DNA of 64,000 bases from Candidatus Acidiferrales bacterium (lineage in GTDB: Bacteria; Acidobacteriota; Terriglobia; Acidiferrales; UBA7541), in the NCBI GenBank assembly GCA_963836965.1, contig CAWILQ010000023.1, positions 57,797-121,796 on the forward strand, read 5' to 3'. A program made the translations under genes and the position numbers. This document shows, piece by piece, positions 58,877 through 62,426 of this stretch (position 1 is the stretch's first letter; each line of letters starts with the position of its first letter). The notes beneath the pieces are model-generated. The model worked only from the letters and a program-made list of their open reading frames with translations. It did no database searches and had not been told where the DNA came from.

Positions 58877-59431
58877 ATGTCCGTCAAGCCAGATCACTGG
58901 ATTCGCCGCATGGCGCTCGAACACAAAATGATTGAACCGTTCACCGACCGGCAGGTCCGGGAAGGAGTGATCAGCTACGGCGTATCTTCCTATGGCTATG
59001 ACATCCGCGTGGCCGACGAATTCAAAATTTTCACGAACGTAAACACGACCATTGTGGATCCCAAGCATTTCGACGCGCGCTCATTGGTGGAATACAAGGG
59101 TGACGTGTGCCTGATTCCGCCGAATTCCTTCGCGCTGGCGCGTTCCATCGAATATTTCCGGATCCCGCGTAACGTGTTGACGATCTGTTTGGGAAAATCG
59201 ACTTACGCCCGGTGCGGAATCATCGTGAACGTGACTCCATTCGAGCCGGAATGGGAAGGCTTTGTGACGCTCGAGATCAGCAATACCACGCCGCTACCGG
59301 CGAAAATTTACGCGAATGAAGGTTTGTGCCAAGTGCTCTTCTTTGAAAGCGATGAGGCCTGCGAAGTCAGCTACAAGGACAAAAAAGGAAAGTATCAATC
59401 GCAGGGCGGAATCGTTCTGCCTCGGCTGTAA
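58877..59431 (+). CDS. dcd: dCTP deaminase
   Basis: [39 protein letters not shown]. Confidence 0.95.
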
Positions 59432-59508
59432 CCAGTCTATCTAATCGCACGAACGCCAGAGGATCCCAACTGAAAATCTTCCTCGACAAACGATTCACAC
59501 TAAACGAT

Positions 59509-60126
59509 CTAGCGTGACATCTTGCCGGCAATCTCCGCCACATGCTTGCCCTGATAACGAGCGACCTTCAGTTCGTTCTCGCTTGGTTGGCGCGAGCCAT
59601 CGGGACCGGCCAACGTAGTTGCGCCGTACGGGGTTCCGCCGCTGACGTCGGCCATGTGCGTTAAGCCGGATTCGCTGTAGGGCACGCCAACGATGACCAT
59701 GCCGTGATGGAGCAGCGTGGTATGAAAACTAGTGATTGTGGTTTCCTGACCGCCATGCTGAGTACCCGTGGAAGCGAACACACTTCCAACTTTACCGATC
59801 AACGCTCCTTTCATCCACAACGGCCCCGTTTGGTCCAGAAAATTGCGCATCTGGGCAGCCATATTGCCAAAGCGCGTAGGGGTGCCGAAGATAATAGCGT
59901 CGGCTTCGGGAAGCTGTTCGACTTTTGCGATGGGAATTTTTGCGAAGGAGGCTTTCGCGGCTTTCGCGCCGTACTTCTCTAAGACATCATCGGGCATGAG
60001 TTCCTGAACCTGGTAGAGAGAAACTTCCGCGCCGGTCACCTGTTTTGCGCCTTCGACAACCGCTTCAGCCATTCGATGGACATGACCGTACATGCTGTAA
60101 AAAATTACCTGAACTTTGATGCTCAT
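59509..60126 (-). CDS. wrbA: NAD(P)H:quinone oxidoreductase WrbA
   Basis: [32 protein letters not shown]; ATG 60126 with AAGGAG RBS (track start 60312 over-extended). Confidence 0.93.
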
Positions 60127-61115
60127 CGTTTTTCTTCTCCTTGAACTGCGATTCCCAAACTCGTCTCCTCGGCCTGCAACGAAGAAACCGTGACCATTGG
60201 ATAGCCTTTCTCGCGCCAGGCTTCGAGCCCACCTTGAAGGGGTCGAATATGCGCGACGCCTCGCCTTCGAAGAAGCAGCGCCACACGGGCGCTGGTGGCT
60301 TCGTTCGGTCAAGTGCAGTAAAGAACGATTTCCCGGTCGAGCGGCAGTAGCCCGTTTTTCTCTGCCAGATCCTTGGAATCGAGGCGTATGGCGCCGGGAA
60401 TGGTCTCGGGATCGGCCTCAAAATCGAGCGAGTGGCGGAGATCCACAATCGAAAGATTCTCTCCGGCATCGATTTTCCGCTTGAGCTCGTCCACGCTGAT
60501 CCGAGCGATGCGCAGATCTCTAAGAAACTTTTGGCGTATCGCGAATTTGTAGAGAATGTAGCCGATAAGGCCGAGCAAGAGAAAAAACACAAGCCAGCTG
60601 CCCATCGAAGCTGCATTGCGAGCGATCAACTCAATCTGGGCGGCGAAAATATAACCAAGTCCGATATACATGCTAAGCCAGAAGAGTGTGCCGAGCACGT
60701 CATACAGCAAGAATTTTCGCAGCCGCATCTGAAAGATTCCCGCCAGTGGCATAACAACCGCGTTGAGGCCGGGAACAAATTTCGTAAAGAGTAGAGTCTT
60801 TGCGCCTTGCTTTTCGAAGAGTCCCTCGGTGCGGCGAACGCAGGAATCCGGCTCGAGAGAGATGCGGCACAGCCACTGGACAACTTTGATTCCTTTACGG
60901 CGTCCCAATTCGTACCAAACAAAGTCGGCCAGAACGGTGGCAAAGGCGCACGAGAACAACGCCGCCGCGAAATTCATTCGACCGGTTCCCGCCAATGCGC
61001 CCGCGGCTAACAAAATCGGTAAAGAGGGAAGTGGCAGTCCAATTTGCTCCAGAAATACCCAGACCACCAGGAACAGGTAGCCGTGGCGGAAAAGGGTCTC
61101 GAGGAGGGAGGGCAT
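60123..61115 (-). CDS. DedA (VTT) + rhodanese fusion, probable selenoprotein (in-frame TGA at 60311-60309, codon 269)
   Basis: DedA motifs ([17 protein letters not shown]); rhodanese starts (IVDLRH, IPGAI, VLYCT), TGA, then [34 protein letters not shown] to TGA at 60125-60123. Confidence 0.85.
60268..60307 (-). promoter_or_regulatory. bacterial SECIS-like hairpin
   Basis: After UGA: CGAA-c-GAAG-ccac-CAGCGCC-[CGUGU]-GGCGCUG-CUUC-UUCG; apical loop starts 21 nt after UGA and has G then U at loop positions 2-3. Confidence 0.7.
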
Positions 61116-61136
61116 GCCGAGCGACCTTTCACTTTT

Positions 61137-61748
61137 TCAGGCTTGACCATTCAGGAACGAGGCAGGCTGGCCCCAATTTCCGGACATCACGAATTCGGCG
61201 AGTGGTTTGCGCGTGCGCGCGGCGAGTTCGCGCTCGCGAAGAGTTTCCGGCAGGGATTGGACTTCGCCCGGATAGCCGATGGCGAAGGCTGCAATGGGTT
61301 CCCAACCCGCCGGTATGGAAAAAACCTGGATCGCTTTTTGCGGATCAAATCCTGCCATTTGGTGAACAAAAAGGCCACGGGCGGTTGCCTCTGTCGTGAG
61401 GTGCGCCATTGCCGCGCCCGTGTCGTAGAACGCGTTGCGGTTGGGTTTGCCGGTGCGCGCGAAGGCAAGCTCGGAAACGGCGATGCCCAGAACGGGAGCG
61501 TGCTTGGCCCAAGACTGGTTCGCTTCTACTAGTGTGCTCAGCACTTTCCCGTGCGTGGCCGAATCTTCTTTCGTTGCCACGATGAAGGCCCAAGGTTGTT
61601 CATTGCTACTGGATGGCGCCCAGCGAGCGGCTTCAAATAGGCTTCGAAGCACCTCGGCAGGGACGACTTTGTCCGAGAAAGCGCGCGGGCTCCAGCGCTC
61701 GCGGATCAATTCGTGTACGGGATGATCGGTGGCAGCAGGTTTGTTCAT
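61137..61748 (-). CDS. nitroreductase family protein
   Basis: IRERWSPRAF, EAARWAPSSSNEQPW, YDTGAA, HQMAGFD, RTRKPL. Confidence 0.92.
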   Translation of the reverse strand: MNKPAATDHPVHELIRERWSPRAFSDKVVPAEVLRSLFEAARWAPSSSNEQPWAFIVATKEDSATHGKVLSTLVEANQSWAKHAPVLGIAVSELAFARTGKPNRNAFYDTGAAMAHLTTEATARGLFVHQMAGFDPQKAIQVFSIPAGWEPIAAFAIGYPGEVQSLPETLRERELAARTRKPLAEFVMSGNWGQPASFLNGQA

Positions 61749-61875
61749 GGTGAATCCCCCAATGTCGCTAGGTCATTAGTAAGCATTGTTTGAACGGCGG
61801 AAAGAAGTGAAATTGCCGGAACACTCCAAAGCATCTCTACCGGCTATAGCCTCCACGACTCGACGAAAATACCCT

Positions 61876-62391
61876 TCATGCCTGGTTCTCCTTTTTTGCC
61901 TTCGAGATCGTTTTGGATGCCTGAGCACTCTCGACGGGTTCACGCTGTTCCACTTCCATCAGCAATTCCGTCAACTGCTTCAAGCGGGCAGCCGGCATGT
62001 GGCGAAACTGATCTTTGTGTAGTTCATGTACCGGCAGGTCCAGTTTCTTCAATAACTTCAGGCCGTCCGGTGTGATACGGGTTTTGATAACCCTGCGGTC
62101 CTCTTTCTGACGTTCGCGGGTAATCAGCTGGTGAGCTTCCATGCGGTCAAGCAGCCGCGTGATATCCGGATCGCGCGAAATCATGCGCTCGCTGATGCCG
62201 CGGCAAAGGAGCCCATCCGGTTCCGCGCCTCGCAGAATGCGAAGCACATTGTATTGAGCAGGGGTAAGGCCCCCGGTTTTGATAAGCCGTTCGGCCTCTT
62301 GCGACAGGGAATCAGCCGTCTTCAGGATGGCGACAAACAAACGGTCCTCCAGGTGCGTCGTGGGACAGGAAGCATCTGCTCGCGAACTCAT
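61876..62391 (-). CDS. MarR family transcriptional regulator
   Basis: GLTPAQYNVLRILRG, PDITRLLDRME, EDRRV, ITPDG..LL; ATG 62391 preferred. Confidence 0.9.
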   Translation of the reverse strand: MSSRADASCPTTHLEDRLFVAILKTADSLSQEAERLIKTGGLTPAQYNVLRILRGAEPDGLLCRGISERMISRDPDITRLLDRMEAHQLITRERQKEDRRVIKTRITPDGLKLLKKLDLPVHELHKDQFRHMPAARLKQLTELLMEVEQREPVESAQASKTISKAKKENQA

Positions 62392-62397
62392 GGCAGC

Positions 62398-62426
62398 ATG
62401 ATAGCTGTTATAACGACTATTGTCAA
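62398..62426 (-). promoter_or_regulatory. leaderless marR promoter with palindromic operator in the spacer
   Basis: TTGACA-17 nt-TATCAT, 6 nt before ATG; ATAGctGTTATAACgaCTAT dyad at 62401-62420. Confidence 0.7.

Follow-up and report, generated by a model that had tools for sequence, protein, structure and literature searches.

A putative MarR-controlled gene cluster with a predicted DedA–rhodanese selenoprotein in uncultured Candidatus Acidiferrales

The stretch of Candidatus Acidiferrales DNA analysed here (the window; 64,000 nt of contig CAWILQ010000023.1) carries at positions 59509–62426 a minus-strand cluster of four genes, which encode a MarR-type regulator, a nitroreductase (NTR), a fusion of a DedA (VTT) membrane domain with a rhodanese domain, and the quinone reductase WrbA. 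The cluster is likely to form one operon under the control of its own MarR protein, and the fusion gene almost certainly encodes a selenocysteine (Sec). Re-examination of coordinates and open reading frames (ORFs) reconfirmed the preliminary description of this DNA as four co-directional genes behind a strong promoter: the marR–NTR gap is 127 nt, the NTR–fusion gap is 21 nt, and the stop codon of the fusion gene shares the sequence ATGA with the wrbA start (an overlap of 4 nt). The features of the locus are as follows.

62398–62426, minus strand: sigma-70-type promoter, with TTGACA at 62426–62421, a 17-nt spacer and TATCAT at 62403–62398 (11 of 12 consensus positions).
62402–62419, no strand assigned: putative MarR operator, the imperfect 18-bp palindrome TAGTCGTTATAACAGCTA, which occupies the spacer between the −35 and −10 hexamers.
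62391–61876, minus strand: marR, 171 aa, MarR/MarR_2 (Pfam PF01047 and PF12802, both above cut-off).
61748–61137, minus strand: NTR gene, an FMN-family oxidoreductase of 203 aa that contains no Cys (PF00881, 82 bits).
61115–60123, minus strand: DedA(VTT)–rhodanese fusion gene, 330 aa with TGA read as Sec (Pfam VTT and Rhodanese).
60311–60309, minus strand: in-frame TGA read as Sec (U269), aligned with the TGC or TGT Cys codons of full-length homologues.
60276–60294, minus strand: hairpin CAGCGCC-CGUGU-GGCGCUG, resembling a bacterial selenocysteine insertion sequence (bSECIS), whose stem begins 14 nt after the UGA.
60126–59509, minus strand: wrbA, NAD(P)H:quinone oxidoreductase type IV, 205 aa.
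63238–62462, minus strand: SDR oxidoreductase gene, syntenic and located upstream of the promoter that bears the operator.

WrbA scores above the cut-offs of two equivalog families (TIGR01755, 310.7 versus 132.5 bits; NF002999, 328.5 versus 141 bits), and NTR and MarR can be assigned at the family level only (Pfam/NCBIfam). The NCBIfam comparison gave no equivalog at cut-off for NTR, which among solved structures comes nearest to 2fre and to the NTR domain of 4eo3, the Prx-NTR protein of Thermotoga. MarR shows generic similarity to its family, with 95 bits to the PDB MarR 3u2r and scores to the NCBIfam models of HpaR (52 bits) and OhrR (34 bits) that are both far below cut-off. Its Cys63, which belongs to the winged helix (helix 3), shows a conservation of more than 90%.

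Promoter-like sites are more frequent in this region than expected (6 observed, 1.7 expected). The promoter of marR has been retained in ~ 70 related loci and is thus not a chance match. Analysis of 80 species-representative loci, all of them Candidatus Acidiferrales or 'Acidoferrum' records from uncultured metagenome-assembled genomes, showed a single copy of the palindrome (with no more than three mismatches) in 68 of the 80, in every case in the gap between the SDR gene and marR. Its consensus across the relatives is TAGTCGTTATAACGACTA or close variants, placed between TTGACA and a −10 hexamer of the form TAnnnT, and the core positions G6, T7, A12 and C13 are invariant in 58 unique versions. 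There are only three symmetric double changes, so that the case for an operator rests on conservation and not on covariation. Ahead of the NTR gene, scans for the palindrome and for promoters revealed neither a further operator nor an internal promoter, and no promoter-like or terminator-like site was detected between marR and wrbA. The 127-nt gap between marR and the NTR gene is less structured than shuffled sequence, and no yceI remnant was found in it.

The ATG of marR lies 6 nt past the −10 hexamer and is not preceded by a Shine–Dalgarno sequence (window 62389–62403). As nearly all orthologous loci have an ATG or GTG 6–7 nt past this hexamer, where transcription should begin, the marR mRNA is most likely leaderless. 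An alternative start at codon 18 (TTG, with the Shine–Dalgarno sequence GGAGGA) was considered and rejected, since the orthologues have no start codon at that place. The preliminary description had also left room for the SDR gene as a member of the cluster; its stop codon lies upstream of the −35 hexamer and hence of the operator-bearing promoter, which puts it outside the regulated unit.

A genome-wide search for the palindrome identified a copy with a single mismatch (TACTCGTTATAACGACTA) on another contig (C18:24526–24543; locus L126:4800–5498, minus strand), where it lies within a promoter (TTGACA-17-TAATAT) that immediately precedes a gene for a pirin. This protein scores 257 bits against the quercetin 2,3-dioxygenase YhhW of E. 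coli, and the same arrangement of operator, promoter and pirin gene is found in six family genomes, this one and five others. On a third contig (C7:16724–17800; L127:2674–3802), a marR paralogue of 52% identity precedes a related palindrome (TATTCGTTGCAACGAATA), after which comes yceI. This marR–yceI pair is the module that the window cluster has lost. The YceI proteins encoded in the clusters of relatives have a signal peptide and score 132 bits against the polyisoprenoid-binding lipocalin TT1927b.

Gene order across the Acidobacteriota, which the preliminary description had proposed to compare as a check that could speak against its reading, turned out not to be conserved outside a single family of Candidatus Acidiferrales. 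In the close relatives (59–78% identity) the order purC-fis-like-TPR-SDR-marR-yceI-NTR-dedA/rhd-(wrbA)-dcd-HU-M50 is collinear, and the ancestral arrangement has yceI between marR and the NTR gene. This yceI is missing from the window cluster and from a few others (L028, L030, L085 and L092). Nineteen loci carry the gene for WrbA 3′ of the fusion gene, and four (L091, L097, L099 and L101) have it between yceI and the NTR gene; in L024 a different FMN_red gene (188 aa) takes the wrbA position. The form found in the window, which lacks yceI and has wrbA, is derived and rare.

Such a pattern might reflect nothing but inherited synteny, with MarR regulating itself or something else and with NTR, the DedA–rhodanese protein and WrbA functionally unrelated. 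We consider this explanation unlikely, although several observations lend it weight and count against a common regulation of these genes. The entire 10-kb block from purC to priA, housekeeping genes included, is collinear in all close relatives, so that much of the conservation is merely inherited. Among the 48 family genomes that carry the fusion, 18 have its gene elsewhere and alone. Outside the family, a tblastn search with the window proteins showed no MarR, NTR, WrbA or YceI next to the fusion gene in 20 loci from other acidobacterial families, and among 75 ORFs flanking it no Pfam family recurred, the ORF calls there being crude; the annotation around the fusion gene in Ralstonia, Paraburkholderia and Comamonadaceae likewise shows no MarR, NTR, WrbA or YceI neighbour. 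Finally, the operator of the window itself has two mismatches to the consensus, both within one half-site.

What speaks against inherited synteny as the sole explanation is the way in which the same small set of genes has been reshuffled behind the same operator within the family, which is better evidence of coupling than a fixed order would be. The operator-bearing marR precedes the fusion gene in 21 of the 48 family genomes, and between the two lie no gene at all (6 genomes), yceI (4), the NTR gene (1), yceI and the NTR gene (9) or yceI and a pirin gene (1); two of the four genomes with the order marR–yceI–fusion continue downstream with NTR and pirin genes. In another nine genomes the fusion gene occupies the site between the SDR gene and dcd and marR was not detected. 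The pirin and yceI genes have the operator at other loci as well, the genes of the window cluster are tightly spaced (21 nt, and an overlap of 4 nt), and each locus has a single operator-bearing promoter with neither a second promoter nor a terminator. Thus, a single MarR-controlled operon is the likely arrangement, and the persistent pair within it appears to be the operator-bearing marR and the DedA–rhodanese gene, the flavoenzymes being variable accessories.

The DedA part of the fusion is recognized by Pfam (PF09335, 55.7 bits versus a cut-off of 33.9), while its scores to the NCBIfam UptA/DedA equivalogs are far below the cut-offs (57 versus 250 and 55.6 versus 236 bits). It shares the VTT/DedA domain and the conserved acidic residues (E23, D64) with the undecaprenyl phosphate (UndP) flippases UptA and YghB/YqjA. 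It differs from them in the RFxPxxR arginines of the re-entrant helix (R130 and R136 of YghB), which are thought to bind the phosphate of UndP in DedA flippases (PMC10127716). These are replaced by K112 and N118 in the fusion (KFVPGLN) and by K and N, S or A in its distant homologues, whereas the canonical DedA paralogue of the same genome keeps both (ARFVPIVR). Given this replacement, we do not class the protein as an UndP flippase. A second feature, specific to DedA proteins with a fused rhodanese from Acidobacteria to Ralstonia, is the pair C83-x8-C92 (window 60840–60869): it is invariant in the fusion subfamily, every distant homologue examined has it, those of Ralstonia among them, and the canonical paralogue lacks it.

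In the AlphaFold model of the fusion (mean predicted local distance difference test score, pLDDT, of 78), a helical DedA part reaches to residue 203 and is followed by a basic linker and a rhodanese fold. A search with this model in Foldseek returned rhodaneses only, among them the membrane-anchored YgaP, a persulfide dioxygenase–rhodanese and CoADR-RHD, and no solved DedA structure was among the matches. The stretch after the last hydrophobic segment is rich in K and R, which by the positive-inside rule suggests a cytoplasmic rhodanese domain. Its active loop reads L-Y-C267-T-U269-P-N-E-A-T-S (LYCTU being residues 265–269). HMMER alignments placed different residues on the catalytic Cys, U269 in the ungapped alignment to 6mxv and C267 in the gapped alignment to 3tp9. 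In the model a strand (262–266) is followed by a loop (267–272) and a helix (273–284), and the fact that the strand ends at Y266 and the helix starts at A273 favours C267 as the first residue of the loop.

The best NCBIfam match of the rhodanese domain is NF041203 (rhodanese_LYCAU), although it stays under the cut-off of 115 bits (85.4 bits with the protein, 80.9 in the genome scan). This family corresponds to the rhodanese-like selenoprotein 'form 3' with the CxU motif, catalogued in PMC13188914 and PMC9312934, and has the same L-Y-C-x-U motif with Sec two residues after the conserved Cys. Its members are stand-alone proteins of ~ 126 aa, whereas the domain in the window is fused to DedA; the NF041203 scan found no stand-alone LYCAU rhodanese in the genome, and the DedA–rhodanese fusion is absent from both selenoprotein catalogues. 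TsoB (NF045694, PMC13188914) is similar in that it joins a Sec rhodanese to a membrane protein with redox-active cysteines, but by its description it has a UxxxxU motif and a DsbD-like membrane module with no homology to the DedA part. The same two domains as in the window are found in P. aeruginosa PA1209 and in Ralstonia proteins annotated as 'DedA family protein/thiosulfate sulfurtransferase GlpE', which have the same C-x8-C pair in the DedA part and a CxCPNE loop with Cys in place of Sec; unlike the window gene, the Cys-form genes in the loci examined have no MarR, NTR or WrbA neighbours. Fusions of DedA (COG0586) with rhodanese have been noted before, with the remark that it is not clear how they relate to UndP (PMC10127716, PMC12893004).

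The domain composition raises the question of what the cluster acts upon. We put the chance of a role in handling xenobiotics, quinones or polyphenols at close to, but no better than, even. In their organization the genes resemble the MhqR and YodB/QsrR regulons of Bacillus subtilis and Staphylococcus aureus, in which a MarR-type repressor controls its own promoter via a 9-9 bp inverted repeat there, and nitroreductases, NAD(P)H quinone reductases and ring-cleaving dioxygenases lie behind such repeats (PMC6798810). The putative Acidiferrales regulon has counterparts of these in NTR and WrbA within the operon and, as the dioxygenase, in the quercetinase-type pirin encoded at C18:24526. The similarity has its limits: the window MarR is only weakly similar to characterized MarR proteins, its operator differs in sequence from those of MhqR and YodB/QsrR, YceI is an addition in Acidiferrales, and the DedA–rhodanese selenoprotein has no counterpart in the MhqR and YodB/QsrR regulons. 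For the latter protein, the link to quinones is one of guilt by association, which also weakens the case for this role.

An alternative view is that the cluster handles sulfur or selenium, with MarR sensing selenite, thiosulfate or persulfide stress, DedA moving the oxyanion, the Sec-containing rhodanese carrying (per)selenide or persulfide, and the flavoenzymes supplying reducing power. The structural matches to sulfurtransferases (YgaP, the persulfide dioxygenase–rhodanese and CoADR-RHD) and the predicted Sec in the active-site loop would suit it, as would the link between a DedA protein and selenite resistance that is mentioned in the passage of PMC10127716 citing Ledgham 2005. Against it, the cluster and its variants contain no gene of sulfur or selenium metabolism, every recurrent partner belongs to a type that handles quinones, flavonols or hydrophobic ligands, and selA, selB and selD are located on other contigs, all of which makes this view quite improbable. 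Accordingly, of the quinone/sulfur/selenium detoxification module put forward in the preliminary description, the quinone part gains support, in that NTR, WrbA, YceI and the pirin fit a quinone and polyphenol theme, and the sulfur and selenium part has found no specific link. A single anecdotal connection with sulfur comes from the Comamonadaceae plasmid CP099607.1 (L157), on which a Cys-form fusion gene has as its divergent neighbour a member of the D-cysteine desulfhydrase family.

The prediction of Sec in the DedA–rhodanese protein, made in the preliminary description, is supported by several lines of comparison. Database homologues fall into two classes, one of 268-residue products that stop exactly at …LYCT (72–97% identity) and one of full-length proteins of 312–333 residues that contain LYCTCPNEATSA (59–75% identity). 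At the DNA level the members of the 268-residue class have TGA at that codon, followed by an open and conserved frame. The species-representative loci comprise 71 with TGA and 9 with TGC or TGT among the 80. In a wider sample of 401 Acidobacteriota genomes the fusion was found in 75, most of which carry one in-frame TGA; these come from many families, at 40–55% identity. Several distant homologues (e.g. G089, G364, G070 and G057) show two TGA codons within the aligned frame. The public records of the TGA forms are truncated at 268 residues and bear the names 'VTT domain-containing protein' or 'membrane protein DedA'.

The hairpin downstream of the TGA is conserved in the Sec forms. Of their 79 unique sequences, 57 have the full 7-bp stem and 17 retain six pairs, so that 74 of the 79 keep 6–7 of the 7 pairs, as compared with 3–6 pairs in the Cys forms. 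In a set of 35 diverse sequences 90% of cells were paired, with 11 double-change cells, a result matched by none of 500 shuffles. The third-position entropy of the five hairpin codons is 0–0.5 bits in the Sec forms versus 1.2–1.6 bits in 14 Cys forms, which means that the synonymous sites of the hairpin are frozen only where the TGA is present. The mean folding energy of the region shows the same trend (−11.9 kcal/mol in the Sec forms versus −7.1 kcal/mol in the Cys forms), although the energy of the window hairpin taken alone is unremarkable (z = −1.08) and in this respect weighs against the Sec reading. The genome encodes SelA, SelB and SelD, which exceed their cut-offs with scores of 555, 361 and 343 bits, respectively, and tRNA-Sec (selC) was found in it by ARAGORN. 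A true stop, leaving a 268-aa DedA protein with a truncated, inactive rhodanese stub and a decaying remnant downstream, would agree with the way gene callers end the product in many records but is very improbable, given that in 87 TGA-bearing loci the frame beyond the TGA is uninterrupted and its protein sequence conserved (down to ~ 40% identity), that the hairpin and its synonymous sites are preserved in the TGA forms only, and that the Sec machinery is complete. On these comparisons, UGA-269 is almost certainly read as Sec.

From the gene anatomy, the Sec signature, the conservation of the operator and the recurrence of the gene set, we infer repression, co-transcription, the type of inducer and the chemistry of the DedA–rhodanese protein in the following way. 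A dimeric MarR-type repressor would bind the 18-bp palindrome and occlude its own promoter. The signal would be an aromatic, a quinone or an electrophile; the inducer is probably a phenolic, a flavonoid or a quinone, and either its binding or the modification of Cys63 would release MarR from the DNA. Upon release, marR-NTR-dedA/rhd-wrbA would be transcribed as one unit, with the mRNA beginning at the start codon of marR or immediately beside it, and the pirin gene would be transcribed elsewhere in the genome. During translation the hairpin 14 nt downstream would recode UGA-269 as Sec. The regulon of this Candidatus Acidiferrales family (class Terriglobia) would thus draw on YceI, NTR, the YhhW-type pirin, WrbA and DedA–rhodanese. 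Its flavoenzymes may carry out a two-electron reduction of quinones and nitroaromatics, the pirin may cleave flavonols, and YceI, in those relatives that have it in the cluster, may capture hydrophobic molecules in the periplasm. The Cys-x-Sec rhodanese, together with the Cys-x8-Cys pair of DedA, may constitute a module for the transfer of sulfur, selenium or redox equivalents at the membrane. The physiological role would be defence against the redox-active hydrophobic aromatics of plant litter or peat. Taken as a whole, a MarR-repressed unit of a family-specific regulon directed against redox-active aromatic xenobiotics is the reading that we favour, with moderate confidence.

For the DedA–rhodanese protein itself a more specific mechanism can be envisaged, which we offer as a long shot. 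The invariant C83, C92, C267 and U269 might form a thiol/selenol redox relay in the membrane that passes electrons or sulfane sulfur from cytoplasmic donors to a membrane isoprenoid quinone or a quinone adduct, in a DsbB- or VKOR-like manner but on a DedA scaffold devoid of the UndP-binding arginines. If so, the regulon of YceI, WrbA, NTR and quercetinase would serve to protect or repair the pool of quinones in the membrane when polyphenols or quinones impose stress.

MarR-controlled operons for quinone detoxification are known already, as are, in the form of predictions, CxU rhodanese selenoproteins and DedA–rhodanese fusions. What is new here is that the predicted Sec-containing fusion appears to be the target that persists most behind a putative MarR operator conserved in, and specific to, the family, in the company of genes of the quinone, flavonol and lipocalin type. 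The fusions are widespread in Acidobacteriota and Proteobacteria (Ralstonia, P. aeruginosa PA1209), and their Sec forms are mis-annotated in public databases. The conserved putative operator and the recurrent partners for quinones, flavonols and hydrophobic ligands provide the first regulatory context for DedA–rhodanese proteins, and the locus points to inducers, phenotypes and residues (C83, C92, C267, U269, K112 and N118) that merit study. The putative regulon is documented in uncultured Acidiferrales from peat and soil, and it suggests that part of the selenium requirement of these bacteria goes into defence against stress at the membrane.

The 3′ end of the cluster is marked by the following features.

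59495–59517, minus strand: weak hairpin resembling a terminator, at the stop codon of wrbA and opposite the convergent dcd (z ~ 0, no T-run).
58877–59431, plus strand: dcd, convergent with wrbA.
58749–58456, minus strand: HU-like gene.
58450–57452, minus strand: gene for an M50-family membrane protease.

The dcd, HU-like and M50 genes are housekeeping genes and are syntenic in the relatives.

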